In this document: one piece after another, positions 36,411 through 59,001 of the stretch
Layout: every line of letters begins with the position of its first letter
Position numbering within the stretch: position 1 is the first letter of the stretch
DNA from: an uncultured delta proteobacterium
GTDB taxonomy: Bacteria; Desulfobacterota; Binatia; UBA9968
Direction: 5' to 3'
Assembly: GCA_963816145.1 (NCBI GenBank)
Contig: CAWFJP010000001.1
Coordinates: forward strand, 128,001-192,000
DNA length: 64,000 bases
Position numbers and translations under genes: made by a program
The notes under the pieces: generated by a model
Database searches by the model: none
What the model saw: only the letters and a program-made list of their open reading frames with translations
What the model was told of the DNA's origin: nothing

Positions 36411-36756
36411 CGCCGCCGGGCAAAAGTCCGTTTCGGACTTGGTCGAAGAATCGCGACGTTGGCGTGCAAGCCCGCATACAAGCGACAGTGCTGCGATGTG
36501 ACAACGACAATCTTGGCGATCACCAAGCTGGCTGGCAGCGTCCGGGAAGCACGCTTGGATTTCGCGCTCGGCTCCGGTTTAGATTTTGCGCAAGAAAAAA
36601 GCGATAATCGCGCAATCGAGTGGGTCAAAATCAACGATTATTACGGTCGTATACCCGGATGCAAAACGAGAAACACTTGCAAACTACATCCACCCGCGCA
36701 TCGTTTGGGGAGACCCCGCAACTCGTTTCCCTGCGGCCCGTTTCCGATCGATCCTT

Positions 36757-37385: not shown

Positions 37386-37398
37386 TTTCTTTATGACG

Positions 37399-39006
37399 TT
37401 ACTGCTCCAGCCAGGTGCGCCAGAGGCCGCCTTTGGCGTGAGTGTATTCCTGTCCCGGACCGCGGTCCCAGTTCTTCACTTTGTCGCGCCAGACGAAGTT
37501 TCGGTCGTTGGCCCAGCCGATTACGTAGTAGGCGACGTCATCGACAAAATACTTTTGCGCCAGCTTGTTCCAGATCGCCAGCCGTTTGGCGCGGTTCGGC
37601 TCTTCCATGTACTGAGTAATCAAATTTCCCAACTCAGCCGTGCAGATTTTGGCAACGTTGCCGACACCGGCTTTACCGCCGGTGCAGGAAATGTACTGCT
37701 CGTTGGCGACCAGCGGTTCGCCATTGCCGCCAGCTCCATACACCGAGACGTTCAACTCGCCGGCGACGGTTTTTTGAATCAGCTCAGCGCCGGCGAGGTT
37801 CTGAATCGAAAATTTGATGCCCGCCTCGGCCGCTTGACGCGTCACCGCCTCGGCCCAGGGGTCGTCCTGGCCCTGAGTCGATCCCAAAGTGATCGGTTTG
37901 CCGGCGTAACCGGCTTCCTTCAGCAAACGCTTGGCTTCTTCGAGGTTGCGTTTCCATTTAAACTTTACCGAAGTCTCCCAGTCGGTTTCAGCCGCCGCCC
38001 AGGTCAGTACCGGAACACCGAAGCCAAAGGTCGCTTCTTTCATGATCGCGTCTTTGTCCAAGGCTAAGGCGATGGCTTTACGCACCCGAGGATCCGACGT
38101 CGGCGCTAACTGGGTGTTCAACACCAACTGTTTGATGCCGGCCATGCCGATGGATTTGAATTGCATTCCCTTCAGCGCGCCGCTTTTGATGCGCTGCACG
38201 AAGGTTGGACCCAAGCGCTCCGTCAAATCGATGTCCCCTGCCTGGATGGCTGAGGCGCGCGATGTCGCTTCGATGATGACGCGGAACCGAACACCGTCCA
38301 AGTATGGCGCGCCGCCCCAGTAGTCGTCATTGCGCACGACCTCGTACTCCTGGCCCGGGATCCACGCCTTGAATTTGAAGGGACCGGTGCCGGGCGGCGG
38401 ATTGCTGCCGATCATCTTTTGCTGGCCCGGCGCCAGCGACTCCTTGGGTGCAATGTGCAAAGTCTGGCTGTCGGCAAAAATCTCCGGCAGCAAACCGCGC
38501 GGACCGGGACAAGTGAATTTCACCGTATAGTTGTCCAAGGCAACGGCGTCACGAACGTTGCTCGATAACTGCCCCTGGCCTGCGGCGCCGTTGGCGGGGT
38601 TCATGATGTGCTTTACCGACCAGACCACGTCATTGGCCGTCATCTCCTTGCCATCGTGGAACTTCACGCCGCGGCGAATCTTGAACGTCCACTCGCTCGA
38701 ACTGGCGTTGGTCGTCCAGCTTTCCGCGAGCCAGGGATGAATCTCGCCCTTCTGGTCGAACATGACCAGCGGTTCGTAGACGTTATCTTTCACGTATTGG
38801 CTTATGGAAGTGTAGGCAACGAAAGGAATCGGCGTGCCAATGTCCTTGACGATGCCAAACTTGAGCGTGCCACCGATGCGCGGTTTCCCGGCTGCCGGAG
38901 CCTGAATCGCCGGGGCGGCGGCCGGTTCGGCTTTGGCAACTACCAACAACAACGCGGCGGCCACCATCAGCCCGCGCGCGACGCCTTTCCTGGTCTGCTG
39001 TTTCAT
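37399..39006 (-). CDS. ABC transporter substrate-binding protein, family 5 (peptide/nickel)
   Basis: Signal peptide; VYEPLV, PWLAESW, IRRGVKFHDG, GTGPFKF, RNDDYWG, DPRVRKAIALALD. Confidence 0.92.
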   Translation of the reverse strand: MKQQTRKGVARGLMVAAALLLVVAKAEPAAAPAIQAPAAGKPRIGGTLKFGIVKDIGTPIPFVAYTSISQYVKDNVYEPLVMFDQKGEIHPWLAESWTTNASSSEWTFKIRRGVKFHDGKEMTANDVVWSVKHIMNPANGAAGQGQLSSNVRDAVALDNYTVKFTCPGPRGLLPEIFADSQTLHIAPKESLAPGQQKMIGSNPPPGTGPFKFKAWIPGQEYEVVRNDDYWGGAPYLDGVRFRVIIEATSRASAIQAGDIDLTERLGPTFVQRIKSGALKGMQFKSIGMAGIKQLVLNTQLAPTSDPRVRKAIALALDKDAIMKEATFGFGVPVLTWAAAETDWETSVKFKWKRNLEEAKRLLKEAGYAGKPITLGSTQGQDDPWAEAVTRQAAEAGIKFSIQNLAGAELIQKTVAGELNVSVYGAGGNGEPLVANEQYISCTGGKAGVGNVAKICTAELGNLITQYMEEPNRAKRLAIWNKLAQKYFVDDVAYYVIGWANDRNFVWRDKVKNWDRGPGQEYTHAKGGLWRTWLEQ

Positions 39007-39262
39007 TGTCACCCTTTCCTTTTTGTCGCTGCCAGCGCCGCGCGCTTGGCGATCGAACGGCGCCGATGACAGCTTAGATGGCACTCTCGCCAAGCAGCGG
39101 AACGCTAGCACCGGGTCGCGACGAGTGTCAAGGATTTCTCAGCGTTTACGCGTCGTGCGCTTGTCATACTTCGGATCTTTGTTGTACGATCCGGCGGCTT
39201 TCCGCTGATGACAGCAATTGTTTTCTGTCGCCGCACAGGGATTTTATCAGGAGGATTTGGCG

Positions 39263-40222
39263 ATGCGCCTGCGCTACATCGCGATGCGTTTGTTGCAATT
39301 GATTCCGCTGGCCCTGGTGGTCACCATGGTGGTGTTTTTTGTCATGATGATCGTGCCCGGAGACCCGGTCATGGTGATGCTCGGCGCGGTGGACGGCGCG
39401 CAAGTTTCCCGCGAGGTCTATGAAGCCATGCGCGTGCGCTTGGGATTGGACCAGCCGCTCATCGTCCAATATCTCCACTGGCTGACGAATCTGCTTCAGG
39501 GCGATCTCGGCATGTCCATCACGCACCGGACCGCAGCCCTGGAAGTCATTCTGCAGCGCCTGGTGCCAACCCTGTATTTGATGGTTGGCGGCCTGATCAT
39601 GGCGGTCATCATCGCCGTGCCCGCGGGCGTGTTGGCAGCGATTCACAACAACACTAAATGGGACCACCTCGCCACGGCTTTCGTTGTCGCCGGTATTTCG
39701 GTGCCGACCTTTTGGCTGGCTCTGGTCGCCGTGTTGATCTTCGCCGTCTACCTCGGCTGGCTGCCGGCGATCGGCTATACCCGCCCGCAAGATGACTTTG
39801 TCGATTTCTTAAAGCATATCGCCTTACCGATGAGTGTCGTGGCCTTGAATATTGCCGCCACGGTCCTACGCTTTCAGCGTCAGGACTTCCTTGAGCAAAT
39901 GGACCAGGATTATGTTCGCACCGCGCGCGCCAAGGGGTTGAGCGAGCGACTGGTGCAGTGGAAGCATGTGCTGCGCAACTCGCTGATCACGACATTCACC
40001 GTGGTCGGCTTGCAGATGGCCTACTTGAGCGGGCTGATCACCATCGTCGAGTCGGTTTTCAATTATCCCGGCATCGGCTATCTGCTGCTCAACTCGATCC
40101 GCACGCGGGATTTCATAGTCGTCCAGGGTGTCGTCCTGTTCATGGTTTTTCTCGTCATCGTCGTCAACCTGATCGTCGATCTACTCTACACGGTGCTCGA
40201 CCCACGGATCCGCTACAGTTAG
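39263..40222 (+). CDS. ABC permease, DppB/OppB-like
   Basis: PGDPV, LGLDQPLIVQY, GDLGMS, DYVRTARAKGL, VESVFNYPGIG, LDPRIR. Confidence 0.93.
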   Translation: MRLRYIAMRLLQLIPLALVVTMVVFFVMMIVPGDPVMVMLGAVDGAQVSREVYEAMRVRLGLDQPLIVQYLHWLTNLLQGDLGMSITHRTAALEVILQRLVPTLYLMVGGLIMAVIIAVPAGVLAAIHNNTKWDHLATAFVVAGISVPTFWLALVAVLIFAVYLGWLPAIGYTRPQDDFVDFLKHIALPMSVVALNIAATVLRFQRQDFLEQMDQDYVRTARAKGLSERLVQWKHVLRNSLITTFTVVGLQMAYLSGLITIVESVFNYPGIGYLLLNSIRTRDFIVVQGVVLFMVFLVIVVNLIVDLLYTVLDPRIRYS

Positions 40223-40239
40223 CCGTGGAAAAATTCGTC

Positions 40240-41169
40240 ATGAAAGCTCAAACCGTCGACCAATCTGCAAGCTTGGGAATTCCGGCTGCGCGGTCTTCAA
40301 CAGCGCTGCGCAGCGTCCTTGCGTTGGTCGGCAGCGACCGGCGTTTCATGGTCGGCGGCCTGCTGCTGATCTTCTACATTCTCATCGCCCTGATTGGACC
40401 CGGTATCTCGCCCCATGATTTGGATGCCCCCAACCTAGACGTGCGCCTGGGGGCGCCGACGGCAACCCATTGGCTCGGCACCGACCGCATCGGCAGGGAC
40501 GTCTTGACCCGCATCATCGCCGGCTCTCGGGTCAGCCTGGAAGTGGCGGCGGGGGCGGTGCTGATGGCGTTGATGATTGGCGCGCCGCTCGGCGCTGTGG
40601 GCAGCTACGTTGGCGGAAAAATCGATGCGCTGGTGCAGCGAGTGATGGAGGGGATCATGGCTTTTCCGTCGCTCGTGCTTGCGCTGGCACTGGTAGCGCT
40701 GGCCGGACCGAGCGTCTTTATGCTCTGGTTCGCCATCGCCTTCAGCTCGGTTCCGCGCTACGCGCGCCTGATCAGAAGCGGCGTGCTGACACAGAAAGAG
40801 CGCGAGTATGTGCTCGCAGCGCAGGCCATGGGACAAAGCCCGCTGCGGATCTTGATCAAACAAATTCTGCCGAACATCATGGCGCCCATCGCGGTGCAAG
40901 TAACACTCGACTTTGCTCGAGCCATCAGTGTAGAAGCGTCGCTCAGCTACCTTGGTCTTGGCTTGTCAGTTCCCTACATCAGTTGGGGCACGATGATCCG
41001 GGACGCCCAAGACTTTTTAGAAGTAGCGCCGTGGTTGGCGATTTTTCCCGGACTCGCCTTGGCGGGAGTCATCGTCGCCTTTACCTTGGTAGGTGACGCT
41101 CTGCGCGACCGCATGGACCCGCGCTTGCGCAGAAGCTTGAGTAGGCAACTTAGAGGTCGACATGAATGA
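40240..41169 (+). CDS. ABC permease, DppC/OppC-like
   Basis: HWLGTDRIGRDVLTR, EYVLAAQAMG, ILPN, EASLSYLGLG, GDALRD..DPR. Confidence 0.93.
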   Translation: MKAQTVDQSASLGIPAARSSTALRSVLALVGSDRRFMVGGLLLIFYILIALIGPGISPHDLDAPNLDVRLGAPTATHWLGTDRIGRDVLTRIIAGSRVSLEVAAGAVLMALMIGAPLGAVGSYVGGKIDALVQRVMEGIMAFPSLVLALALVALAGPSVFMLWFAIAFSSVPRYARLIRSGVLTQKEREYVLAAQAMGQSPLRILIKQILPNIMAPIAVQVTLDFARAISVEASLSYLGLGLSVPYISWGTMIRDAQDFLEVAPWLAIFPGLALAGVIVAFTLVGDALRDRMDPRLRRSLSRQLRGRHE

Positions 41170-41394
41170 TCGATTCGCCCCAGAGTGCTCACAAACCGAC
41201 GTAAAGAGGTCTACTTCGTTCGTATGCTAAAATTCCGCCTTCAGGTTAACTAATCAACCGGGCATTTCGCGATCGGGGTATGAACCCCGCTCGCGACCAA
41301 AGGGGATGTTCAACCCCCTTTGGAAACCCCAACAATTTTGTGCCCGCAGCAAGCTGCGGGGAATATTAGATTCAATTAATCCCGAGGAGGTACC

Positions 41395-41820
41395 ATGAGC
41401 ATCGCGGCAATTGATCACTGGGTATTAGTAGTCAAGGACTTGGAAGCAACCTTCGCTTTCTACCGCAAGCTCGGCCTTGAGGCGGGTTGGCAAGAACGAC
41501 CCGGTGGGCGGGGCAAACGTCCGATCATCCGCATCAGCGAGACCCAGAAGCTAAACCTTTACGTCGTCGATCGCTATGAAATCGAGAGCCCGACCCACGC
41601 GCCGGGGTACGCATTGGGATCGGCGGACTTCTGCCTGCGCTGGGAAGGAACCGTGCAAGAGGCGCAGGACTTTCTCAAGCAGGCCCGAGTTGCGGTGCTC
41701 CAAGAGCCGGCCGCCCGCTCAGGCGCTCTGGGTCCGGGGACCAGTCTGTACGTGCGCGACCCCGATGACAACCTGATCGAGCTGATCACCTACGGCGACC
41801 CCAAGTATAAGCAGGGTTGA
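41395..41820 (+). CDS. VOC/glyoxalase family protein
   Basis: IDHWVLVVKDLEAT..FY, GSADFCL, SLYVRDPDDNLIEL; GAGGAGG RBS. Confidence 0.9.
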   Translation: MSIAAIDHWVLVVKDLEATFAFYRKLGLEAGWQERPGGRGKRPIIRISETQKLNLYVVDRYEIESPTHAPGYALGSADFCLRWEGTVQEAQDFLKQARVAVLQEPAARSGALGPGTSLYVRDPDDNLIELITYGDPKYKQG

Positions 41821-41823
41821 TCT

Positions 41824-43050
41824 TTACGCGCTGGCGCGCACCGCGGGCTTTTCAACTACAGGCTGCGGCCCGACTTTGATCGGTCCCGGATCGTACAGCG
41901 GTTGTTTGATCTGAGATTTATCCACATCAAGCTTGTAAAGCCCGATGGCGTTGTCCATCAGAATCTTCTTGCGCTCATCCACCGACACCACGTCCTGAAG
42001 CGAGTGAGTCCGGCACCAGACCGACTTGGGCCAGGTGGTGGTGCCGTGCGGGTAGTCGGTGGAGTACATAATCTTGTCGGCACCGATCTCATCGCGGCTT
42101 TTGATCCCATGGCGCTCGTGCCAGAAGGTGGCCCACATGTTGGTGCGGAAAACTTCGCTCGGCTTCTTGGTGAGCGTGGTGCTTTTCGCCACCCTGCGCT
42201 CGTCAAACTCATGGTCGAGCTCTTCGAGTAAGTATGGCAGCCAGCCGACACCGCTCTCGACACTGATTGCCTTCAACTTGGGGAACTTTTCAAATACGCC
42301 GGAATACAAAATGTTCGACACGATCTCCATATGACTGACAAAGGTCATGGAAACCTGCAGGGCGGACCTGGCGCCTTGCTCGAGCGAGCCCCAGGCCGGC
42401 AAGGCTGGCAAGGCGGTCGAGTGCAAACACAGCGGCACATCCAGGTCGCCGCATGCCTGGAAGACAGGATTCCAATAGGAATCGTTGAAATGTTTCAACC
42501 CGAGAACATGCGGCGCGCCGTGCCAGGCCAACGCTTTGTGGCCGCGCTTCACCGCGCGCTGGATCTCGGCAACGCACAACTTCACGTCCCACATCGGGGT
42601 TACGCACTGCGCGATGAACCTGGGCGAGTAGTCTTGCCACTCTTCGATGAGCCAGTCGTTATAAGCTTGAATGCAAGCCAGACGGAATTCTTCACTGCCC
42701 TCTTTCTGGAAGTTCTGGTTGGTGATGCCGATGATGTTGGGGAAAAGCACCGAAGCGTCCACTTCCTCTTGGTCGAGAATTTTCACACGCTCGGCGGCAA
42801 CGTACGTGGACGGCGGCACTTCGTCCCAGGTTCGCACCTTTGGATTCACGCCGGCGATGCGCGCCAGACCGCCGAATCCTTGCGCGTTGCCGCCCAGAGC
42901 CCAGGTCTGGCTGCCGTCCGGCAATTCGACGATGTGCGGGATGTCATCGCCAAACTTGGCTTTGGACATCCGCTTGGTCCAAACATCGGGCGCTTCTTGG
43001 ACGTGATCATCAGCGGAGATGACACCATACTTCATCTTCAGGGTTGCCAT
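41824..43050 (-). CDS. Amidohydrolase family protein (Amidohydro_2)
   Basis: ISADDHVQE, AYNDWL, PLCLH, VESGVGWLP, MYSTDYPH. Confidence 0.9.
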   Translation of the reverse strand: MATLKMKYGVISADDHVQEAPDVWTKRMSKAKFGDDIPHIVELPDGSQTWALGGNAQGFGGLARIAGVNPKVRTWDEVPPSTYVAAERVKILDQEEVDASVLFPNIIGITNQNFQKEGSEEFRLACIQAYNDWLIEEWQDYSPRFIAQCVTPMWDVKLCVAEIQRAVKRGHKALAWHGAPHVLGLKHFNDSYWNPVFQACGDLDVPLCLHSTALPALPAWGSLEQGARSALQVSMTFVSHMEIVSNILYSGVFEKFPKLKAISVESGVGWLPYLLEELDHEFDERRVAKSTTLTKKPSEVFRTNMWATFWHERHGIKSRDEIGADKIMYSTDYPHGTTTWPKSVWCRTHSLQDVVSVDERKKILMDNAIGLYKLDVDKSQIKQPLYDPGPIKVGPQPVVEKPAVRASA

Positions 43051-43322
43051 TGAATCTCCTTAGAGAATAGTTGAACCCGATTAGTCAGACATTCCCGTGT
43101 CAGCCGAAAAGGCGCCGTCGAACCCTGCGGGAGAATAAATTGCACTGTCATGAGCCGTCGCACCGCGAAAGCGAAATATCCGATTTCAATCTGTTCCGGC
43201 CCATACCGGCAAACGAATCCGAACTTACTCTCGCCCATGAAGGCTGTCAATTGTTACCGGAGCGATCAGAAGTTTGCACACTTCGCTGGCAGACGCGGCG
43301 ATGAATTAGGATCGCGGCGCTG

Positions 43323-44105
43323 CTAGGAACTGCCGATGGTGCCGCCGTTGACCACTAGGGTTTGCCCGGTAGTGAAACGCGCCATGGGCGAAGCGAGGAA
43401 CAGAGCCGTCTGAGCAATATCCGCTGGCTCACCTCTGAACCCCAATGGGTTGGAACCGACCAACGTTTGATTGGCAGAAAGATCAACCTGGGCTGCAGAG
43501 GTGGGACTTCCAGTGTTGATGCCGCCCGGCGCGATGGCATTGATTCTGATCCCCAAAGGCCCGAGTTCAAAAGCCAGCACTCTTGTCATTTGAATAATCG
43601 CCGCCTTGGACGCCGCGTAGTGGACGCCTTGCCCGCGGCTGTAAAAAAGCCCGGCGTGGGACGCGATGTTGATGATGCAGCCGGTTCGCTGCACCATCAT
43701 CAGACGCGCCGCCCGCTGGGTGCACATGAAAGTGCCCTTCAGATTGACCGCAAGCACCTTGTCCCATTCGCCATCGGCGATCTCCAGGAAAGGCTTTCTA
43801 AACCATATGCCGGTGTTGTTGACCAGGATGTCGACGCCGGCGAATTTTTCCTGCACGGTCGCGAACAACCGGTCCACGTCCGCGGGCGAGGCAACATCAG
43901 TTTTAACCGCCAAAGCCTTTCTACCGATGTGCTGCACACTCTCGGCGATCTTCCGGGCGTTATCTTGGTTGATGTCGGCGATGACGAGATCAGCGCCGGC
44001 CCTGGCAAACGTTTCGGCAATCGCGGCGCCGATGCCGCGGCCAGCCCCGGTCACGATGGCGAGCTTACCGCTCAGATCGATGACAGCTTCTGACTTTGAC
44101 TCCAC
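43323..44105 (-). CDS. Short-chain dehydrogenase/reductase
   Basis: VTGAGRGIG, DILVNNTG, YAASK, IRINAIAPG. Confidence 0.93.
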   Translation of the reverse strand: MESKSEAVIDLSGKLAIVTGAGRGIGAAIAETFARAGADLVIADINQDNARKIAESVQHIGRKALAVKTDVASPADVDRLFATVQEKFAGVDILVNNTGIWFRKPFLEIADGEWDKVLAVNLKGTFMCTQRAARLMMVQRTGCIINIASHAGLFYSRGQGVHYAASKAAIIQMTRVLAFELGPLGIRINAIAPGGINTGSPTSAAQVDLSANQTLVGSNPLGFRGEPADIAQTALFLASPMARFTTGQTLVVNGGTIGSS

Positions 44106-44142
44106 GGCTCTTTCCTTCGGGATGCCACACAGTTGTTCTCAC

Positions 44143-44388
44143 TCAAGATGGTGCTTTAGCAAATTCATTCTGATTCGCCAACTCACGCGCAATGGCTTTC
44201 GCGAACTCATCAGCACCCGGACGCTCCGTCTGCTGCGAGTCGGCGAGCTCTCGGATGATCTCGCCTTGCCGCACGCTCGTCACTTGACCGTAGTTGCAAA
44301 AGGTCGTGAGCACTTGTACGTGACCGAGGTTCTGACTCGACGCTTTGAACTGCTCTGGCGTCTGGCATACTTTCTCGCCTAATTGAAC
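44143..44388 (-). pseudogene. C-terminal relic of a tyrosine recombinase/integrase (absent from the ORF track)
   Basis: My translation: VQLGEKVCQTPEQFKASSQNLGHVQVLTTFCNYGQVTSVRQGEIIREL..*, carrying the LGH..TT..Y box-II pattern; no start codon or upstream HxxR. Confidence 0.7.
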
Positions 44389-44711
44389 TGGCAGTTTGCT
44401 GAAAAACTTGATTGGAAATGGTTTTTCATCGTGGTGATGTGATCAAAGGATCGACTTGTGGAAGCCCTATTTATCTCACGTCAAGGCTGGCGTGGTTTTG
44501 TCGGTTGATCACTGCCCTCAATAGTGGCGACTTGAAAACCCAAATAGATGTTCCGTGGTTTAGACCCCGAAATTGTCGAAGTGCGGCTAGTTTAGTTAAT
44601 TTTAAAGAAAGGAGTGCCGTTCAGGTTGCGACCGGCAAAGGCGAGGCCCATTGCCTGCGACCGGAGATTCTTACTCCTAGGTTGTCTTCCCGGTGAATAA
44701 TCCGGGCTTGG

Positions 44712-45272
44712 CTACTTTGCCCAGGATACTCGATTGGGCTTACGGAGAAGAGCAGGCAGCTCCTTTTGCTGTGGCATGTCGAGCGCAGAAAAGATGTGCG
44801 AGATGCTCTTTTCGAATAACGGGATTGTAGTCTTATTTATCTTGTCGCCCTTTCCCGTCAGCACCACGTGAACCACGCGGCGATCATTCTCGTCTCGTTT
44901 ACGCGATACGAGTTTTTTCTCTTCCAACCGGTCAACGATGCCTGTCAGGTTGCTCACCGTGACCATCATCTTCGCGCCGATTTCTCCGAAGGGAAGCCCG
45001 CCGGCATAACCGATGGTCGCCAGTACGTAAAACCGAGGCGACGTGAGACCCAGTTTCTCGAGATCCTCCTCGAGCTTGTTGTGCGAGAGGAGGCTAAAAC
45101 GCAGAAACCGGACCCACACGCTCGTCGTGTACGATATAAGAAAGGACGTTTGAAAACGACCACGCGCATCACTGTATTCGCAGGGGAAATAAAACGCAAA
45201 TCGTGTTTTCTTTTTCGAAAGTAGCGATCTTTGTCCACTAAGAAGGCGCTGCCCTCGCGTAGCCGGTCCCAT
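44712..45272 (-). CDS. MarR family regulator; N-terminus doubtful, possibly degenerate
   Basis: GLTSPRFYVL, SNLTGIVDRLEEKKLVSR..DRRVVHVVLT. Similarity is apparent only below about 45135. Confidence 0.7.
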   Translation of the reverse strand: MGPATRGQRLLSGQRSLLSKKKTRFAFYFPCEYSDARGRFQTSFLISYTTSVWVRFLRFSLLSHNKLEEDLEKLGLTSPRFYVLATIGYAGGLPFGEIGAKMMVTVSNLTGIVDRLEEKKLVSRKRDENDRRVVHVVLTGKGDKINKTTIPLFEKSISHIFSALDMPQQKELPALLRKPNRVSWAK

Positions 45273-45286
45273 AAATTTTTAATGAT

Positions 45287-45331
45287 TGGAGCGGGCGATG
45301 GGGATCGAACCCACGAGGTCGAGCTTGGCAA
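45287..45331 (-). other. 3' half of tRNA-Gly (att-site scar), not a complete tRNA
   Basis: Minus strand TTGCCAAGCTCGACCTCGTGGGTTCGATCCCCATCGCCCGCTCCA: anticodon loop (GCC), T-arm GTGGG-TTCGATC-CCCAT, acceptor strand CGCCCGC-T-CCA. No D-arm or 5' strand upstream. Confidence 0.85.
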
Positions 45332-45741
45332 TTTTGTCATAAAATGAACGTTTTTGATTGACTAACCTTATCTTATAGCACTATAAGATGATGGAATCCT
45401 TAGTGTTTGGCGACTATTGATTTAGCTTCGATTCGCTAAAGCTAAAGATAGTTGGTCACCCCGACCACTACCAGCTAATGGACTCTCATCACGCAAACGG
45501 TAAAGGAACGATGGAAGCTGATCCGGTACAGAGCCACGAAACTTGCTCATCGATGCCGAGCTTGGTTGGCTTTTATGGGGTCCCGGCATTTCGGATAACG
45601 AATACCTGCTATCGGTTTCCATCATAACCCTGATCGATCGCAAACACTCGATATTATGGAGAAATTGTTCGTAGAGCTTTATTTTTTCGGTGAGGACTAA
45701 CTAATGTTGCGCGCTTTAAGTTCGAACCGACGGAGGTAGCA

Positions 45742-47589
45742 TTGCGCACAAGTGGTGAACACAGAACTGAATTGGAACCTACCCCCACTGAGAACACCGT
45801 GGCTTTTCGGGCGGCTGATTTTTCCACGCTATGCGAGGCCCTGGATTACTCAGCCCTGGGACAGACCGGGTGCAATTTCTACGGGAGTCGGGGCGAGTTG
45901 TGCGCCGTTCTGTCATATGCGGATCTTCGAGAGCAGGCACTATCCTTGGCGCGAAAGCTTTTGAGCTTGAGACTCGACCGGGGCGCTCGAGTAGCAATCA
46001 TTGCCGAGACCGATCCAAATTTTCACCGCATATTTTTCGCTTGCCAGTACGCCGGTCTCGTGCCAGTGCCGGTTTCGGCATCGACGTTCATGAGTGGCCG
46101 AGAGGCTTACGTCGCACAACTCAGGGCGCTTCTGCGCGATTGCCGAGCGTCCGTCGCGATGGCGCCGTCTGAGTTCTATCCCTTTTTGGCCGAGGCCGCC
46201 GAGGAGTCAAATATTGCCCATGTCGGCACACTGGAATCCTTCGAGCGACTGCCTGAGTCTCAAGAGAGTCTGCGCCCCTCGGAGCCGGATGAGGTCGCCT
46301 ATCTTCAATATACTTCCGGAAGCACGCGATTTCCCCGCGGAGTAATTATTACCCAAAAGGCGGTCCTCGCCAATCTGAATGAAATCATAATTCATGGCCT
46401 CAAGCTCCGCCCCGGTGACCGCGCCTTCTCCTGGCTGCCCTTTTATCACGACATGGGGCTGGTGGGATTCGTGCTCGGGCCGATGGTGTCGCAGATCTCC
46501 GTGGATTATTTAAAAACCTGGATGTTTGCCATGCGACCACTGTTGTGGTTGTCCTTGATGACACGCACCAAAGCCACCATTTCGTTTAGCCCGTCTTTCG
46601 GTTATCAACTGTGCGTGAAGCGTCTCAGGGGGGATGTCGCCAGCACTTTCGATCTCGGCGCGTGGCGGGTCGCCGGAGTAGGCGCCGAAACGATCCGGTC
46701 AGCTGCCTTGGCGGAGTTTGCCGAAGTTCTGCAACCAAGCGGATTTAAGGCGAGCGCATTTATGCCCTGCTACGGAATGGCAGAGGCCGCCCTCGCCGTA
46801 AGTTTCACACCCGTCGACCAAGGTATCACCGTTGATCGAGTTGACCCGGCTGCGTTATCCGAGCGTGGAATGGCTTTGGCCGTGAATGGGCGTGACCCAG
46901 GCTCCGAACGGGTGATATCAAATACAAGACCGTTTGTAATTTGCGGCGTCCCTCTGCCGGGAACTCAAGTCGAAATTCGTGACGAGCAAGGCAGAGTTCT
47001 GCCGGATCGCCATGCCGGTGTTATTTTTTTGCGCGGCGCAAACATGATGTCCGGGTACTTCGACAATCTCGAGAGAACTCGTGAGGTCTTGTCCTCGGAC
47101 GGATGGTTTGACACCCAAGACATTGGCTATCTCGCCGAAGGTCGGGTTGTGATCATTGGCCGCAAGAAAGATGTCATCATTATCAATGGCCGAAAAATCT
47201 GGGCTCAAGATTTGGAGCATCTCGCTGAGGAATTGCCCGAGGTGAGAACGGGCGACGCATGCGCGTTTTCGCTACTGAACCCTAATGGGATTGAAATGGC
47301 GGCGATGGTTGTGCAGTGGCGCGAGGGGAATTCGACCAGGGAAGGAGAGTTTGCCCATCGCTTGCAGGGGCTGATCGGCGAGCGCTTCGGGATAGACTGT
47401 TTCATTGAGATTGTTCCGCCGCACACCCTGCCGCGTACGTCCTCCGGAAAGCTTTCCCGTTCGAAGGCACGGGAAGAATTTCTGAGCCGGCATGATCCGG
47501 CTATTCTGCAACGAAAATGGGTCAGGCGAAGCGCGTCCACCGAGGCTCGGCAGGAAGAATCAAATCCATGCGCGGCGTCGTCGCGTTGA
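45742..47589 (+). CDS. Fatty acyl-AMP ligase / acyl-ACP synthetase (AasR-like)
   Basis: YLQYTSGSTRFPRGV, SWLPFYHDMGLVG, CYGMAEA, IGRKKDVIIINGR, LPRTSSGKLSR. Start may be TTG 45772. Confidence 0.9.
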   Translation: MRTSGEHRTELEPTPTENTVAFRAADFSTLCEALDYSALGQTGCNFYGSRGELCAVLSYADLREQALSLARKLLSLRLDRGARVAIIAETDPNFHRIFFACQYAGLVPVPVSASTFMSGREAYVAQLRALLRDCRASVAMAPSEFYPFLAEAAEESNIAHVGTLESFERLPESQESLRPSEPDEVAYLQYTSGSTRFPRGVIITQKAVLANLNEIIIHGLKLRPGDRAFSWLPFYHDMGLVGFVLGPMVSQISVDYLKTWMFAMRPLLWLSLMTRTKATISFSPSFGYQLCVKRLRGDVASTFDLGAWRVAGVGAETIRSAALAEFAEVLQPSGFKASAFMPCYGMAEAALAVSFTPVDQGITVDRVDPAALSERGMALAVNGRDPGSERVISNTRPFVICGVPLPGTQVEIRDEQGRVLPDRHAGVIFLRGANMMSGYFDNLERTREVLSSDGWFDTQDIGYLAEGRVVIIGRKKDVIIINGRKIWAQDLEHLAEELPEVRTGDACAFSLLNPNGIEMAAMVVQWREGNSTREGEFAHRLQGLIGERFGIDCFIEIVPPHTLPRTSSGKLSRSKAREEFLSRHDPAILQRKWVRRSASTEARQEESNPCAASSR

Positions 47590-48527
47590 CGGGAGCGACC
47601 GGATTCATCGGTAGCGCGATAGCTCGAAAACTCGTAAACGAAGGGTGGCGCGTCCGCGCGCTCATCCGCGCGCCATCGCGGCGAGCACGCCTCGAGGGAA
47701 TCTCGATTCAGTGGGTTCACGGCACACTCGAAAATTTTGAGCACCTCGATAGCCTGGTGGGCGATGCGGATGCCGTGGTCCACTGCGCAGGGGCGCTGCG
47801 CGGTATCACCGACGCCGATTTTTATTCTGTGAATGTTGAGGCGGTGTCACGGCTGGCGCAAATTGCCACGCTCAGGAGCCCCGCTCCCCGGTTCCTTTTA
47901 ATTTCATCTTTGGCAGCTCGGGAACCAAATTTGTCGGCCTACGCGGCCAGCAAGCGGATGGGAGAGATCGCCCTATCCCAAATGGCCGGCGGTTTCGCGT
48001 GGACCGTGCTTCGCCCGCCAGCTGTCTATGGCCCCGGCGACCGTGCACTGCTTCCCCTGTTCCGCCTTATGCGGCGCGGGATCGCTCCGTTGCTAGGCCG
48101 AACTGACGCCAGATTCTCTCTGCTCTATGTCGAAGATCTGGCGGAGGCGGTGCTAAAATGGCTGGTCAGCGAGAGCCGAGAGAGCCGCGTGTTCGAGTTG
48201 GATGACGGACACCCAAGGGGATATAGCTGGAGTGAGGTTGCGGAAACGTTCGAGCGGCTTCGCGGAAAACCGGCGTTTCGTTTCCACTTGTCCGAGCTGC
48301 CCATGAATGTCGCCGCGAAGCTTAATCAAATCGCCGCATCGGTTATAGGATACGCGCCAATGTTTACCGAGGGGAAAGTGCGGGAGATTAGGCATCCCGA
48401 CTGGGTGTGTGACAACTCCATGTTTTGCCAGGCGGCCAATTGGAAGCCCACGATGTGTCTGGAAGAAGGGCTGCGGGCGACTCTTAGCCTCACGGCAAGT
48501 GGTGTCAGTGGCCTGGGGCAGGGTTAG
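47568..48527 (+). CDS. NAD-dependent epimerase/dehydratase-type reductase (CerR-like by context)
   Basis: LTGATGFIG, VVHCAG, ISSLAAREP, YAASK, RPPAVYGPGD; overlaps the ligase gene. Confidence 0.85.
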   Translation: MRGVVALTGATGFIGSAIARKLVNEGWRVRALIRAPSRRARLEGISIQWVHGTLENFEHLDSLVGDADAVVHCAGALRGITDADFYSVNVEAVSRLAQIATLRSPAPRFLLISSLAAREPNLSAYAASKRMGEIALSQMAGGFAWTVLRPPAVYGPGDRALLPLFRLMRRGIAPLLGRTDARFSLLYVEDLAEAVLKWLVSESRESRVFELDDGHPRGYSWSEVAETFERLRGKPAFRFHLSELPMNVAAKLNQIAASVIGYAPMFTEGKVREIRHPDWVCDNSMFCQAANWKPTMCLEEGLRATLSLTASGVSGLGQG

Positions 48528-48649
48528 ACATCTGCCCCCGATTGGGGTATGAGGCTTTTAAACAACCTGGCTGTAGGAGGGATCGAAGGTCAACTCTTTT
48601 AGCGGAGGATCTCGTGCAGGCGGGGCCAGCGACTCTTGCCCGAGAGGCA

Positions 48650-48842
48650 AGAATCGCTGCACGCAGTGACGCCACCCACGCCCTCTGCGCATCCACGCAG
48701 GCTCGTGAACATCATCGGAGAAGTCGACAAGTCATTTCCAAAGGGGATTTTTCCCAGACCGCACAAGAAAGACCGCGACTATTACTGGAAAAAAGCGACC
48801 TCGCTGGCAAATAAGCTGCGGGCCTTTGACAAGAGCGGATGA
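48650..48842 (+). pseudogene. Probable C-terminal remnant of a 2OG-Fe(II) oxygenase-like gene
   Basis: ESLHAVTPPTPSAHPRRLVNIIGEV resembles the distal His...Arg motif. Its stop overlaps the next ATG (ATGA), and an in-frame stop lies upstream. Confidence 0.45.
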
Positions 48843-49807
48843 CGCCTGTGCAGCAGCCTGAGAGCCCCTGGAACTGGTTGCGACGCAAACTCTACTGCGC
48901 CCGCTTACGCAACAACATGCGCCACATGCGGAAGGCGCATCCGGACTTCCGGCTCGCCGGCGCACATGGGGTACTAAACACCGTCTATTGGCGCGGTAAG
49001 CCGGTTGGCCGTATTCTCCCACTCGAACGCCTCACTCGGGCAACCGCGCCAGACTGCTTCATCGTCGCTACGGGCCCGTCGATCAATCAGATCGACTTCT
49101 CCCACCTGCAAGGGCGTACCTGCATTGGCGTCAATGGCAGCATCCTCAAAAGCGAGGAATACTCGCTGCCCTTCCGCTCGCACGTGATCGCCGACCGCCA
49201 ATTCTTCAAGGACCGCTTCGAACTGGTGCGCAAGGCACTGATGTCCGGTGCGGAGTGTCTGTTCTCGTTTCGCGGTCTGAGCGTCATCTGCGAACGCCAG
49301 CCTGAGCTGTTGCGCGACGCCCGGGTCTTCCTGCTGGACGAGATCACGGCGCGCTTTGGCCAGCCGAAGCTGAGTGCGGTCAATTTCGATGCGGCGGCGG
49401 ATCGCGATCCCGACCTCGTTTTGCACCCCTCGGCGCGGCCCTCTAAGGGTTGGGTAGGATTCAGCCGGGATATCCGCAAAGGGGTGTTTACAGGTCAGAC
49501 TATCGCCTTTTCCGCCGTACAGGTCGCCGTCTGGCTCGGCTACACACGGATATTTATCCTCGGCATGGATCTCGGCGGAACCGGAGACAGGGCGCGCTTT
49601 TATGAGTCCGGAGAGAAGGCGGCACCGATACGACTCGACCGTGACTATGTAAGCTATATCCAGCCGGCGTTCGAAGTCGCGAGCAAGCTGCGTGGCGCAC
49701 TCGGCATCCAGATCTACAATCTGTCGCCGGACAGTCGCCTTCCCGCCGCAATCATTCCAAAATTGTCTTTCGCGGACGCGCTGGAGATGATCCGACAGCC
49801 TGCCTGA
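48839..49807 (+). CDS. WaaZ/RfaZ-like (GT73/DUF115-like) glycosyltransferase
   Basis: IVATGPS, IGVNGS, GFSRDIRKG..TIAFSAVQVA..LGY..I..GMDL..RFYE, IYNLS; pattern resembles the Kdo transferase WaaZ. Confidence 0.7.
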   Translation: MTPVQQPESPWNWLRRKLYCARLRNNMRHMRKAHPDFRLAGAHGVLNTVYWRGKPVGRILPLERLTRATAPDCFIVATGPSINQIDFSHLQGRTCIGVNGSILKSEEYSLPFRSHVIADRQFFKDRFELVRKALMSGAECLFSFRGLSVICERQPELLRDARVFLLDEITARFGQPKLSAVNFDAAADRDPDLVLHPSARPSKGWVGFSRDIRKGVFTGQTIAFSAVQVAVWLGYTRIFILGMDLGGTGDRARFYESGEKAAPIRLDRDYVSYIQPAFEVASKLRGALGIQIYNLSPDSRLPAAIIPKLSFADALEMIRQPA

Positions 49808-49991
49808 GCTCTTTCGCCCGCATGTAGATTCGGGTCTTATGTCGATTTCAGCGCGGGGTTCCAGGCGTGGCCGGCAAGCTTTACAAGACAACCGCGTCCG
49901 TGATAGAAAAGAATCCGGTGGTGGCGCCGGGGAAAATGCGGCAACTTAAGTTCCCGCGGATAAACGGATCACCTTCGCGGCCTCCCACACG

Positions 49992-50240
49992 ATGAGCCAC
50001 TACGAGTCGATACTTTCCCAACTCTATGAAATTTTAGGGCCGTATACGCCGGACGGGCAGAGCCTTTCCGAGAACACGGAATTCATATCCGATCTAGGCC
50101 TCGATTCGATGAAGGTCATGCAGCTCCTGCTCGATACCGAAGAACGGTTCGACATTTCCATTCCCCTGAATATCATCCCGGACGTGCGGACCGTCGGGCA
50201 TTTCGCCCGCTGTCTCCAGCAACTCGTTGACCGAGGGTAA
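49992..50240 (+). CDS. Acyl carrier protein (AcpR-like, coupled to spt)
   Basis: DLGLDSM phosphopantetheine site, EERFDISIP; TAATG overlap with spt. Confidence 0.92.
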   Translation: MSHYESILSQLYEILGPYTPDGQSLSENTEFISDLGLDSMKVMQLLLDTEERFDISIPLNIIPDVRTVGHFARCLQQLVDRG

Positions 50241-51421
50241 TGGCCCTCCTTGACAAATTCCAGCAAATTGCCGGCGCCCGCGCGGCGCTGGCGCAATTGG
50301 GCGAGGACCCTTTCCGGGCGACGATTGAACGGATCCTGTCGCCAACCGAGGCCATTGTAAACGGCCGTCCAATGATCCTCGCGGGAACGAACAACTATCT
50401 TGGTCTCACCTTAGATGCTCAGTGCGTAGAAGCGGCGGTCCGAGCCGTGCGAGAAGAAGGAACGGGAACTACCGGATCGAGGATGGCTAACGGCAGCTAT
50501 GGCGGGCACGTTGCGTTGGAGAAGGATCTGGCGGACTTTTATGGGCGCCGGTGGTGTGTCGTGTTCTCAACCGGGTACGTTGCCAATCTGGGCGTTATTT
50601 CGGCGCTCACCGGGCCGGGAGATGTGATCCTTCTCGATGCCGATTGCCATGCAAGCATTTATGACGGCTGCCGGATGAGCGGGGCAGAAGTTATTCGGTT
50701 CCGTCACAACGATGTCGGGGATCTCGATAAGCGCCTGCGACGTTTTGGGGAGCGTCGTGCCGACACGCTGATCGTCGTGGAAGGCATCTATAGCACGCTG
50801 GGGGATCGAGCGGCGCTGGCGGAAATCGCGGCGGTAAAACAGGATCATGGCGCTTGTTTGCTTGTAGACGAAGCTCATTCGCTTGGAGTGCTGGGGGAGC
50901 GGGGCCGCGGACTTTCGGAGGAGAGTGATGTCGAAAGCAGCGTCGATTTTATCGTCGGCACGTTCAGCAAAAGCCTGGGAGCCACCGGCGGATTTTGCGT
51001 CTCGGATCACCCCGAGGCGGAGCTGATCCGATATGCAAGCCGCCCGTATATTTTCACCGCATCTCCCTCCCCGGCGGTGGTCGCTTCGACCAGAGCCGCT
51101 TTAAACAGGCTCCGAAACCAGCCTGAACTCCGTGTCCGGCTGTGGAACAATGCGCGGCGATTGTATCAGTCATTGCAGGAGATGGGATTCAGACTGGGTC
51201 CCGAGGTTAGTCCGATTGTCGCGGTCCGGTTCGCGCAGCGCGAAGAAGCGTTCGGCTTGTGGAACGCCCTTCTGGATCAAGGAGTATATGTCAACTTGAT
51301 TTTGCCGCCGGCGGCCCCCGACGGCGGCAGCTTGCTTCGTTGTAGCGCGACCGCGGCGCACACGCCGGACCAGATCGATCGAATCTGCAAAGCATTTGCT
51401 ACCGCCAGGGCATTATATTGA
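50240..51421 (+). CDS. spt: Serine palmitoyltransferase (PLP alpha-oxoamine synthase)
   Basis: GTNNYLGL, GTGTTGSRMANG, DADCHASIYDG, DEAHS, VGTFSKSLG, RPYIFTAS; ligase-reductase-ACP context. Confidence 0.85.
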   Translation: MALLDKFQQIAGARAALAQLGEDPFRATIERILSPTEAIVNGRPMILAGTNNYLGLTLDAQCVEAAVRAVREEGTGTTGSRMANGSYGGHVALEKDLADFYGRRWCVVFSTGYVANLGVISALTGPGDVILLDADCHASIYDGCRMSGAEVIRFRHNDVGDLDKRLRRFGERRADTLIVVEGIYSTLGDRAALAEIAAVKQDHGACLLVDEAHSLGVLGERGRGLSEESDVESSVDFIVGTFSKSLGATGGFCVSDHPEAELIRYASRPYIFTASPSPAVVASTRAALNRLRNQPELRVRLWNNARRLYQSLQEMGFRLGPEVSPIVAVRFAQREEAFGLWNALLDQGVYVNLILPPAAPDGGSLLRCSATAAHTPDQIDRICKAFATARALY

Positions 51422-51523
51422 GCTGACTACCCAGTCGCCTTGGTCATGATAACTTACCGGACATCAGGGTTCCGATTCTTCGATGTTCTCTTCGAACGAC
51501 ACGCGGCAGGACATTAAAGAAGC

Positions 51524-53284
51524 ATGCGGTTTTTGATTACCATCGCCCGGATGTATCCCGGACGGAGCGCGCTCACGCTGGTCGCGCTGTTATTTGCCAG
51601 CGTCGCGGAGGGGCTCAGTCTGCTCTTGCTGCTTCCATCGCTCAACCTGCTGACCAACGACGCCGCTCAAGGTCCCGGCAATGGGTTATCGGGGCTCGGA
51701 CACATGCTGACCGAAGCGCTCTCGGCAATTGGCGTAACGCCGACAGTCGGCGCTTTGCTGGGCATCATGGTCATCTGTCTTGCGCTCAAGGCGGTATTTT
51801 TGCTCCTGGCGAACGCCCAGGTCGGCTACACCGTTGCCCATGTCACGACCGACTTGCAACTCTCCCTGCTTCGCGCCTTGTTGGCTGCCCGGTGGGAGTT
51901 TTACGTGCGCCAACCTGTGGGCGGCCTGACCAATGCCATCGGCACCGAAGCGCTCCGGGCGTCACAGGCGTATCTTCAAGGCGCCAGGACTCTGGTGGCT
52001 CTCGTTCAAGCCATTGTCTTCGCGGGCGCGGCCTTTTTTCTTACGTGGAAGGGCGCCCTGCTATCCCTCGCGGCAGGAGGGATGGTCCTTTATGGGCTGC
52101 GCCGGCTCGTCCGCATGGCGCATCATGCCGGCATGCGCCAGACTCAACTGCTCAAGTCTCTCTTGACCCGATTGACCGACAGCCTTCAATCGGTCAAACC
52201 TCTGAAAGCAATGGCCCGTGAAGAACTGGTCGGCTCTCTTCTCAGATCAGAAAACAAGCGCTTGAATCGCGCGTTGCGTCAGGATGTGATCAGCACGGAG
52301 ACTCTGACCGCGGCTCAGGATTTCACGATTGGGCTGATCATCACCTCCGGTTTGTACGTGGCCCTGATTCAGTGGAAGCTGCCGTTCAACGCCGTGCTCG
52401 TCATGATTCTGGTCCTTACGCGCTCGATTGTATATATGGGAAAGACCCAGCGGCAATATCAAAAAATGAAGTCCTATGAGAGCGCCTTCTGGTCGTTGCA
52501 GGCCGTCATTGAAGACACCAGCCGCGCCCGCGAAACGAATCCAGAGGGCGCTTCTCCCCGCCTTGAGCACTCGGTTCGCCTGAACAATGTCAGTTTCGGC
52601 TATGGAAAAGTATCTGTGCTTGGGAATGCGTCGCTCACCGTCCCGGCGGGTTCATTCACTGCCATCATGGGGCCGTCGGGAGCGGGGAAAACCACGATCG
52701 CCGATCTGATCATCGGCCTGCTCCGTCCACAGCAAGGCGAAATACTGATTGATAATGTGTCATTGGAGCAGATTGACCTCAGGCAGTGGCGCAGGATGAT
52801 CGGCTACGTGCCGCAGGAATCTTTCCTGCTGCACGAGACGGTCCTGTGGAACGTGACGCTTGGCGATCCGGAGGTGAACGAGGCCGACGCCGAGGCTGCG
52901 CTGCGCGCCGCCGGGGCATGGGAATTCGTCGCGGAACTGCCGCAGCAAATACACAGCTCGGTGGCGGAGCGCGGTATGGCGCTCTCAGGCGGCCAGCGAC
53001 AGCGTATCGCGATCGCGAGGGCGTTGGCTCGCCGCCCCAAGCTGCTGATCCTCGATGAGGTCACAAGCTCGCTCGACCCGCAGACCGAGGCGGCAATTTG
53101 CCAAACGTTGCAAAGCCTTCGAGGTCAGCTGACCATCTTGGCGATCTCGCACCAGCCCGCCGTCGTCGAAGCCGCCGATAGAATTTACCAGATACAGAGC
53201 GGCGAGGTTATTTTAGTCCGCGATGGCCGTGAGTTGGATCTCGTCTCCGGCCAGTTACAAAAGTTACGCAGCGCCCAAACATAG
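51524..53284 (+). CDS. ABC exporter, fused permease/ATPase (MsbA-like)
   Basis: N-terminal TM domain; GPSGAGKTT, LSGGQRQR, LILDE. Confidence 0.92.
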   Translation: MRFLITIARMYPGRSALTLVALLFASVAEGLSLLLLLPSLNLLTNDAAQGPGNGLSGLGHMLTEALSAIGVTPTVGALLGIMVICLALKAVFLLLANAQVGYTVAHVTTDLQLSLLRALLAARWEFYVRQPVGGLTNAIGTEALRASQAYLQGARTLVALVQAIVFAGAAFFLTWKGALLSLAAGGMVLYGLRRLVRMAHHAGMRQTQLLKSLLTRLTDSLQSVKPLKAMAREELVGSLLRSENKRLNRALRQDVISTETLTAAQDFTIGLIITSGLYVALIQWKLPFNAVLVMILVLTRSIVYMGKTQRQYQKMKSYESAFWSLQAVIEDTSRARETNPEGASPRLEHSVRLNNVSFGYGKVSVLGNASLTVPAGSFTAIMGPSGAGKTTIADLIIGLLRPQQGEILIDNVSLEQIDLRQWRRMIGYVPQESFLLHETVLWNVTLGDPEVNEADAEAALRAAGAWEFVAELPQQIHSSVAERGMALSGGQRQRIAIARALARRPKLLILDEVTSSLDPQTEAAICQTLQSLRGQLTILAISHQPAVVEAADRIYQIQSGEVILVRDGRELDLVSGQLQKLRSAQT

Positions 53285-53368
53285 GGGAACGGCCGATCGA
53301 GCCGCGCCGTTGTTTTAACACGGGCCTGGATCGCCGTTCAAAATTGGGGATGCTATTTTTCTACTTGG

Positions 53369-54601: not shown

Positions 54602-54744
54602 GCGGTCATAAAATCGCTGTAACGGATCCACCCGCTGCGCGATGCGCAGGAAATGAAAAAACACCGGCGGACTAGCCGTCCTTCTCGATCACGATAGTTA
54701 CCGTTTTGCGGAGTGCCGACGAGCCGAGCCGCGACCGAACCGAA

Positions 54745-55050: not shown

Positions 55051-55241
55051 CGGAGTCTAGCCCGCACTCTTATCGGACATTGCCCGCTGCGAAGTTGGGA
55101 TGGGAGCCAGTCCTTACTCTCTGCCGCTTGTCAGGTTCTCCAGGTCGGGCGGCAGGCGGGCGGCAGGATAAATAAGAGTTCCGGCGGGTCACCACTTAGA
55201 AAAAAAATTCCTATCATCTCATTTGATTCTTGTCATCCATT

Positions 55242-58989: not shown

Positions 58990-59001
58990 ACTTGCTTGTA
59001 G

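Follow-up and report, generated by a model that had tools for sequence, protein, structure and literature searches.

A decayed half of a glycine tRNA gene beside a putative ceramide synthesis cluster in an uncultured Binatia bacterium

The half tRNA gene and its surroundings

In the 64,000-nt stretch of an uncultured Binatia bacterium analysed here (the window; genome G000, on its 431-kb contig C1), a 45-nt piece of a glycine tRNA gene lies on the minus strand at 45287-45331, between a gene for a MarR-family regulator (marR) and a putative ceramide synthesis cluster. The piece is a real but decayed remnant of such a gene, and comparisons of its sequence across the family support reading it as an attachment-type (att-type) recombination scar, of a type that is common there; we call it the scar below. 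Our order-wide search set comprised 123 genomes; the genus is represented by 30 other genomes and the family by 59 genomes of other genera. Block limits are given in window-equivalent positions. The features on either side of the scar are the following.

44200-44711: left margin of the variable DNA; the gene order shared with G003, G004 and G023 stops at 44199-44237
44712-45272, minus strand: gene for a MarR-family regulator, part of the imported block; a native G000 paralogue is on contig C17
45275-45286, minus strand: 12-nt trailer after CCA, atcattaaaaat, like the trailers of intact tRNA-Gly(CCC) genes in G006 and G009
45287-45331, minus strand: orphan 3' half of tRNA-Gly(CCC), from position 32 to CCA, recognized by its sequence, by tRNA comparison and by homologous pieces in L085, G071, G083 and L084
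45332-45359, minus strand: A-rich 28-nt arm, aatcaaaaacgttcattttatgacaaaa, adjoining the scar on its 5' side; orphan halves elsewhere in the family have related arms (16-site table)
45360-45475: AT-rich spacer with a TAGNACTA-type palindromic repeat, delimited by alignments; G+C 0.375 over 45332-45475

The minus-strand sequence of 45287-45331, TTGCCAAGCTCGACCTCGTGGGTTCGATCCCCATCGCCCGCTCCA, begins with the first base of the anticodon loop and continues through the 3' anticodon stem, the variable loop, the T arm, the 3' strand of the acceptor stem and the discriminator base to CCA, just as a preliminary description of this DNA had stated, and its T stem is able to pair (GTGGG/CCCAT, with a G-T, a T-A and three G-C pairs). 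The same description placed AT-rich DNA unlike a tRNA where the 5' half should be, and this holds as well: a 5' half was looked for in the 144 bases of 45332-45475 and none was found, and their G+C content is 37.5%, against 56.4% for the genome. ARAGORN called zero tRNAs in the window, and an Rfam search of 45000-45800 (E up to 10) returned only a chance CRISPR-repeat match and a 7.8-bit match to the T arm of the transfer-messenger RNA (tmRNA); such silence and so weak a score are expected, because only half a gene is there.

Among the tRNAs of G000 itself, the scar is closest to Gly(CCC) (39/45 identical), followed by Gly(GCC) (36/45) and Gly(TCC) (33/45). The tRNA-Gly(CCC) of G074, from another genus of the same family, reaches 42/45 and has the GTGGG/CCCAT T stem in common with the scar, from which the T stem of the sole tRNA-Gly(CCC) of G000 (on contig C11) differs. 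When the 45-mer was searched with up to 3 mismatches in the order-wide set, it matched only G000 itself and two places in G074; a reversed-pattern control gave 0 matches in the 123 genomes. The anticodon of the scar looks like GCC, a detail that needs correcting. In L085, G071 and G083 the corresponding cluster-linked pieces have TTCCCAA at the anticodon, the L085 piece is one base away from the G074 tRNA half, and of the two substitutions in the scar that are private to G000, one turns the anticodon into GCC. Judged by its sequence, the scar derives from a tRNA-Gly(CCC) and not from a GCC gene, because CCC is what the cluster-linked copies of other genomes have, and the G of G000 is a later substitution. 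The scar was also considered as a repeat of G000's own tRNA-Gly(GCC), and this was rejected, as 36/45 is below the identity with Gly(CCC).

Pairwise alignment of arms and orphan halves yielded a table of 16 sites. All 14 orphan halves tabulated begin at position 32, with the sole exception of a 31-nt piece (G083:C2 f2). The sites are G019:C43, G003:C25, G006:C387, two each in G074 and G077, and four in G083 (three full-length copies and the one of 31 nt), and the halves linked to the ceramide cluster are those of G000, L085, G071, G083 and L084. Every full-length orphan half is preceded by a related A-rich arm (consensus approximately gaaaacaTTCAattcgATAgAAAA, then TTCCC at the junction), the copies are 86-100% like the tRNA, and in G019, G003 and G006 about 150-220 nt upstream of the half are conserved too. 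Three genomes also have an intact tRNA-Gly(CCC) in direct orientation on the contig of the orphan, at a distance of 62 kb (G003), 20.7 kb (G006) or 39.4 kb (G083:C2); in G074 an orphan is inverted and 5.3 kb from the tRNA. The anticodon loop is a known crossover place of integrases that use tRNA genes (tDNA) as targets. That tyrosine integrases leave behind a tRNA together with a displaced fragment is a general principle for which the available part of PMC4383910 can be cited. The tDNA islands of the Islander/TIGER type, as far as that part describes them, resemble our locus in the displaced 3' tRNA fragment starting at the anticodon loop, in the acquired cargo on the element side and in that three related genomes have the same fragment type paired with an intact tRNA-Gly(CCC). 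G000 differs from them, since it has no partner tRNA on the contig and no integrase of tRNA-Gly type, its host-side DNA is imported, and its fragment is a relic inside a larger block.

The A-rich arm of G000 is read, from this family-wide likeness, as the core-proximal sequence of the element side (P arm). The spacer that follows it is kept along with the cluster in G071, G083, G072, L083, L084 and L085 and is missing in G016. It contains a repeat, tcatcgtgtagtactataac, with the palindrome TAGTACTA, present in two copies in most carriers and in one diverged copy in G000; placed as it is between marR and the cluster, this repeat is a candidate operator. On the other side of the scar, the marR-side DNA (from 44587/44716) is 90-91% identical in L085 and G071 and missing from the closest relatives, and ORF94, an open reading frame (ORF) at 44412-44696, has no match to any family. 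A motif that flanks tRNA-Gly(CCC) sites in relatives, AAAACGTGCCCA, was tried and rejected: it occurs 3 times in the window, where 2.25 occurrences are expected, and never near 45 kb, and its matches genome-wide are scattered.

Part of the region 43800-46200 is present in 20 sequencing runs from 18 studies; contigs from 4 of these runs were aligned, and the parts that they leave uncovered carry no evidential weight. One contig of run X3 spans 45239-45557 with 0 differences and one of run X2 spans 44149-44317 with 1 difference, either run being possibly the source sample. The junctions seen in G000 are not assembly artefacts, because these contigs reproduce them. A contig of run X1 departs from the window at 45287-45290. 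In an 8.4-kb soil contig of run X2, position 44622 is joined to 45316 with a 4-base overlap, a natural deletion of 693 nt (44623-45315) that removes marR and most of the scar; the locus is therefore polymorphic today.

Limits and distribution of the acquired block

To the left of the scar, 37389-44199 is syntenic with four genomes of the same genus (G003, G004, G023 and G021) at 78-88% identity, and the synteny stops at 44199-44237, just upstream of an SDR gene; to the right it resumes at C1:206604, 34.4 kb on. Between these flanks lies an acquired block of ~34 kb, from window position 44200 to ~78600 (it ends at 78605) and thus reaching past the window. In G004 a single contig carries the two flanks, separated by ~11 kb that contains phage-like remnants. 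The stretch 45400-64000 has a single match of 45 nt, and no other, in G003, G004, G021 and G023, so that it is island DNA absent from close relatives between conserved flanks.

The preliminary description had taken the scar for an att junction with the island beginning at 45331, and had predicted an intact minus-strand tRNA-Gly, perhaps with an integrase, beyond 64000. The att-type scar stands, with the same start base and arm across the family. Position 45331, however, is no live island boundary in G000, because the marR gene to the left of the scar was imported too and the real left edge is ~1.1 kb further left. The whole of C1, which has 239 kb to the right of the window's start region, holds no tRNA gene (the genome total is 49, on 31 contigs), and a six-frame search of C1 for the integrase domain PF00589 gave no match. 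An empty tRNA-Gly site next to marR in relatives, which that description proposed to look for, did not appear: the flanks examined of six native marR loci (L007-L012) and of the C17 paralogue locus hold neither tRNA nor tmRNA genes. What lies at the far end is a different gene.

78606-78958 (C1:206606-206958), minus strand: tmRNA gene (ssrA), right boundary of the block; 197.5 bits, 3' end facing the block

The variable DNA starts at the 3' side of this gene, which is followed by smpB, panC and panB; its tag peptide is ADDFEYQLAA. The 3' end of the tmRNA gene is overlapped by what is left of a tyrosine integrase, a C-terminal portion with frameshifts. It is by tblastn that we recognize this ssrA-type remnant, the only integrase found on C1, which is 63-83% identical to integrases that are intact and lie next to ssrA in G014 and G044 (E 3e-37). 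It matches only residues ~127-148 and 236-349 of the G014 integrase and is interrupted by IS1182. The IS1182-family element, which has terminal inverted repeats (CCTAGGAGTTTGCGC.GCAG), abuts the remnant (G000:C1:204676-206958, window-equivalent ~76676-78958).

Downstream of ssrA, four of nine relatives carry integrase genes or fragments (G014, G044, G008, G018) and one, G004, a phage-like remnant; the contigs of two relatives end within 171 nt of the tmRNA. The ssrA gene is an island hotspot in the genus. Islands at ssrA, tandem arrays included, are reportedly the subject of Williams's 'Traffic at the tmRNA gene', of 2003 in J Bacteriol. Our locus is like such islands in that the block abuts the ssrA 3' end and the content is variable in every relative; the overlap of an integrase frame with the tmRNA 3' end is a possible further likeness, as a remnant of that frame is all that is present. 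G014 offers an intact example (L061, G014:C12:414900-434899), a 10-kb ssrA island with an integrase at 760-1809, a 34-nt repeat of the tmRNA 3' end at 10947-10980 and a second, P4-type integrase directly behind it. G000 differs, its integrase being a pseudogene cut by IS1182 and its block having no tmRNA repeat at the far end. An SDR-like match beside the tmRNA on G016:C492 was considered as shared synteny and rejected as a paralogue, as it is on the wrong side and only 70% identical.

The serine palmitoyltransferase (Spt) encoded in the block has no match above 39% identity in the 30 other genomes of the genus; in G016 a partial copy of the cluster, seen by DNA only, is on the end of a 6.7-kb contig. 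In the other genera of the family, 4 of 59 genomes (G071, G072, G077 and G083, from three genera) have an Spt that is 92-94% identical, with the spt gene of G083 split by a frameshift, and the cluster DNA of the carriers is 88-94% identical. Core DNA beside ssrA is 73-75% identical to that of G016 and 69-71% to that of G072, and the tmRNA is 86% identical to that of G016, against 96-98% for the closest relatives, which are without the cluster. So patchy a distribution of near-identical copies supports, on sequence grounds, the preliminary description's proposal that the DNA to the right of the scar was acquired horizontally.

Cluster DNA was aligned for ten carriers (G000, G016, G071, G072, G077, G083, L083, L084, L085 and L099), and the contigs of G077 and L099 stop short of the scar site, leaving eight that can be assessed. 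In five of them (G000, G071, G083, L084 and L085) the half-tRNA is at the same place beside the conserved spacer; in the other three it is missing, and homology starts at 45476 in G016, at ~45340-45406 in G072 and at 45405 in L083. The ceramide cluster is always on the arm (element) side of the scar. On the far side, marR is common to G000, L085 and G071, L084 diverges after a 13-nt trailer, and G083 diverges immediately after the scar. In G072 the right half of the block is collinear and lies 23.7 kb downstream of the tmRNA, and the left half is on another contig, 2.6 kb from smpB, an arrangement that may reflect an inversion of a segment with ssrA and the island. In G083 the block is far from ssrA, and in L083 a tRNA-Ala(CGC) lies 720 nt from the cluster start.

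The surroundings of the cluster in G083 hold more than one such piece: at L075/L076 (G083:C3:880699-886638), two orphan halves in the same orientation lie 5.9 kb apart, directly left of the ceramide cluster, with truncated isoamylase and SDF-symporter genes between them, a pair that looks like a tandem array of remnants. Taxonomically, the closest named contigs are labelled Ca. Binatia, 'delta proteobacterium', Thermodesulfobacteriota, Acidobacteria, Terriglobales, Acidiferrales and Limnocylindrales, and 91-93% identical Spt proteins are found on contigs labelled as other phyla (Acidobacteria, Chloroflexota). The label of L085, at least, is doubtful: its neighbouring AraC-like gene is 81% identical to that of G016 and 76% to a G000 gene.

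Gene content of the block

The genes of the block in the window begin with the predicted ceramide set and continue with genes for transport and lipid modification, given here with strand where it was assigned.

45742-47589, plus strand: fatty acyl-AMP ligase (NF006624, 753 bits, cut-off 600)
47517-48527, plus strand: SDR/epimerase (domain-level match)
48839-49807, plus strand: WaaZ/MptE-like ORF in a 1.35-kb insert (48514-49867) (TIGR04437, 93.7 bits, below the cut-off of 200)
49992-50240, plus strand: acyl carrier protein (ACP; PF00550)
50240-51421, plus strand: Spt (NF047599 equivalog, 633.8 bits, cut-off 500)
51524-53284: MsbA-like ABC transporter (family match)
57925-60198: second LptG/LptF pair (both above NCBIfam cut-offs)
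51524-64000: rest of the island in the window, with an Elm1-like gene, SGNH genes, a fatty-acid desaturase, an NTP-transferase and a GT2 gene (family matches)

Spt, a dedicated ACP and an acyl-activating enzyme lie side by side, and by these three matches the block is a putative bacterial ceramide synthesis cluster. Candidates of CerR/bCerS type come from weak domain matches only, namely the epimerase/SDR at 47517-48527 and a GNAT-like protein (L051:5312-6451, E 6e-5); a GNAT homologue adjoins the ligase gene in contigs labelled Methylomirabilis. The insert at 48514-49867 is found in G000 only, among all carriers aligned. Further genes of the block encode two CDP-alcohol phosphotransferases, the GNAT-like protein, an LpxL-like acyltransferase, a P450, a sulfotransferase and Elm1-like proteins. 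The NTP-transferase (60541-61329) and the CDP-alcohol phosphotransferases (L051:3012-5245) have weak matches to inositol-phosphate cytidylyltransferase/synthase families and may make an inositol-phosphate head group. G000 has a native LptG/LptF pair at C4:280908-283187, and G003, G004, G019 and G021 have one pair each; the additional pair of the island and the MsbA-like transporter may together serve to export specifically the lipid that the island makes.

Bacterial sphingolipids were long thought to be rare, and their patchy distribution is unexplained. The ceramide synthesis gene set of Caulobacter is said to have been described by Stankeviciute in 2022. In the available part of PMC11324152 that set is given as spt, ACP, acyl-ACP synthetase, reductase and acyltransferase (citing Olea-Ozuna 2021), and horizontal transfer of the ceramide cluster to gamma-proteobacteria is already proposed there. 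The block of G000 is like the Caulobacter set in bringing together Spt, its dedicated ACP, a fatty acyl-AMP ligase and, as candidates by domain match, an SDR/epimerase and an acyltransferase of GNAT type, along with transport genes, and differs from it in its own LptF/LptG, its MsbA-like transporter, its inositol-phosphate-like head-group genes, its mobility scars and its presence in uncultured soil and wetland lineages. Our literature search found no paper joining 'Binatota' and 'sphingolipid', and the accessible part of the literature on 'serine palmitoyltransferase' with 'genomic island' concerns fungi, algae and their viruses.

Elsewhere in the window, short stretches at ~26767-26916, 27226-27454, 35728-35912 and 36055-36411 resemble dozens of loci in G003, G021 and G023 (72-88% identity) and are probably a multi-copy repeat family. 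A plus-strand open reading frame of 2459 aa occupies 7110-14489.

Origin of the scar and movement of the block

On balance we lean towards reading the scar as the fossil att site of an element that targeted tRNA-Gly(CCC), with the ceramide block once its cargo, later moved together with the scar and now found at the tmRNA hotspot. The scar would have been left by recombination between an integrative element and a tRNA-Gly(CCC) gene, with the crossover at the first anticodon-loop base; since the cluster is on the element side of it, the block would once have been carried by an element of this kind, or by several in tandem. This event would have taken place in another lineage, whose tRNA had the GTGGG/CCCAT T stem seen today in G074, and the block would then have passed between genera in one piece, with the scar and the adjacent marR included. 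The scar was not made in G000, because its T stem is foreign to the genus, marR is imported, the left edge is further left and the far end is a tmRNA gene with a dead integrase. There the ~34-kb block sits at the island hotspot directly downstream of the tmRNA gene, where the ssrA-type tyrosine integrase has been truncated, frameshifted and struck by an IS1182 element, and the scar lies ~1.1 kb inside the left edge, partnerless, decaying and, on this reading, outside any recombination. The scar, its junction across the family, the limits of the block, its patchy distribution in near-identical copies and the integrase remnant are all observed.

Given the position of the block, the integrase remnant and the same ssrA linkage in a second genus (G072), its arrival was most likely by way of the ssrA site. 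Both the order of events and this ssrA-specific integration are inferred; for the latter, the distal end lacks the second copy of the tmRNA 3' end that would confirm it. As to the scar itself, an origin as the junction of tandem elements is, if anything, slightly more likely than one as an attR (element arm plus host half), its trailer being like those after the intact tRNAs of G006 and G009. The idea of the preliminary description that the pathway arrived as tRNA-targeted cargo fares well in its polarity, which is sound, with the cluster on the element side; it fails in placing the event in G000, where the far end is a tmRNA gene. Tracing the pathway to tRNA-targeted cargo is still the best reading of its history.

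Several observations weigh against this account. No PF00589 integrase was found in the intervals between tRNA and fragment in G003:C25, G006:C387 and G083:C2 (953-997 kb), nor beside any cluster-linked scar, and the G006 interval has the look of normal chromosomal DNA, with genes for RND efflux, PPK2, glycogen phosphorylase and a sigma-54 activator; this marks the orphan-half sites as old. No carrier has the cluster between a scar and an intact tRNA-Gly, and in G083 ~990 kb separate the sole intact tRNA-Gly(CCC) from the start of contig C2, where the island continues. A repeat of the tmRNA 3' end, sought at the distal end in C1:165000-206600, gave only 10-nt chance matches; derivation of the scar from the tmRNA 3' end was likewise rejected, as no repeat was found. 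The G+C content of the island (0.577 and 0.554) does not differ from that of the genome (0.564), and with a trailer of 12-13 nt like that of the intact tRNAs in G006 and G009, a tandem or attP-like junction fits equally with attR. In favour of the account stands the cluster-linked copy of G083, with the T arm GCCGG..CCGGT, the type of its own tRNA, where the other copies have GTGGG..CCCAT. Such a difference is expected if the host-side half was replaced through a fresh integration; the T arm is, however, one T-loop base off the G083 tRNA, which leaves an in-situ origin there unproven.

The alternative that we take most seriously, while considering it unlikely, makes the scar a mere passenger, left with marR by an older and unrelated element, and has the ceramide block moved by ssrA-specific integration only. 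It draws on the tie of the block to ssrA in two genera, on the ssrA-type integrase remnant, on the three of eight assessable carriers without a scar, and on the trailer, which suggests element DNA on both flanks. It has difficulty with the arm and spacer, which are contiguous with the cluster in five carriers, including G083 and L084 with their different far-side DNA, with a T arm that varies between carriers in a compensatory way, and with the missing tmRNA repeat at the far end of the block. We regard it as improbable, to a clearly greater degree, that the half-tRNA and its arm are no integrase scar at all but form a unit of their own between marR and the cluster, for instance a small element that is repeated or non-autonomous, or an RNA with a regulatory role or produced by processing. 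The absence of integrases beside every site would suit this, as would the conserved upstream sequence of G019, G003 and G006, the strong likeness of the orphan copies to the tRNA and the position of the piece between marR and the palindromic repeats. Three genomes, however, have the classic configuration of a tRNA and a direct repeat 20-62 kb apart, the junction is in the anticodon loop, where tDNA integrases are generally known to cross over (the available part of PMC4383910 covers the general principle), and the natural deletion variant removes marR and most of the piece with nothing else changed.

The model of the preliminary description as it was written, in which a single intact island has the scar as its far junction and reaches to a regenerated minus-strand tRNA-Gly with its integrase, and marR is native, is very improbable. 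Its polarity was right, the DNA to the right is acquired, and a minus-strand tRNA-like gene, the tmRNA gene, does lie 33 kb to the right with an integrase remnant. It is nonetheless refuted on C1, which has 0 tRNA genes: the tmRNA 3' end is only ~22/34 identical to the scar (hand alignment), the block has no tmRNA repeat, marR is imported, and the T stem of the scar is unlike that of G000's tRNA-Gly(CCC). A tRNA pseudogene formed in situ by deletion or overwriting of the 5' half, or a chance likeness, has only the absence of a partner tRNA in its favour and is scarcely credible in view of a breakpoint and an arm that recur in many genomes of several genera, a region missing from the closest relatives, 42/45 identity to a real tRNA and the empty reversed control.

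Islands at tDNA and tmRNA genes and the fragments that they displace are textbook knowledge, and decayed, partnerless fragments are common; the scar is an ordinary kind of feature and its cargo a moderately interesting one. What is new is this combination of cargo and scar, a ceramide pathway that, by prediction from its genes, brings along LptFG and ABC export genes of its own as it travels among uncultured lineages of soil and wetland. For annotation, the locus is a caution that an orphan tRNA half marks past recombination and not necessarily a present island boundary. It is also physical evidence for the spread of a ceramide pathway, with defined block limits, att relics of tRNA-Gly(CCC) and tmRNA, a decayed integrase and near-identical copies in at least four genera. 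More tentatively, and as a possibility to which we give less than even weight, the ~30-kb 'outer-membrane lipid' island (ceramide and head-group genes, MsbA-like flippase, LptF/LptG) may be a self-contained module that moves between genera of uncultured bacteria from soil and wetland by tRNA-Gly(CCC)- and tmRNA-specific integration. If this is true, a recipient would gain sphingolipid synthesis and outer-membrane export in one step, and if the phylum labels of the contigs with a 91-93% identical Spt are not binning errors, the module would cross phyla.

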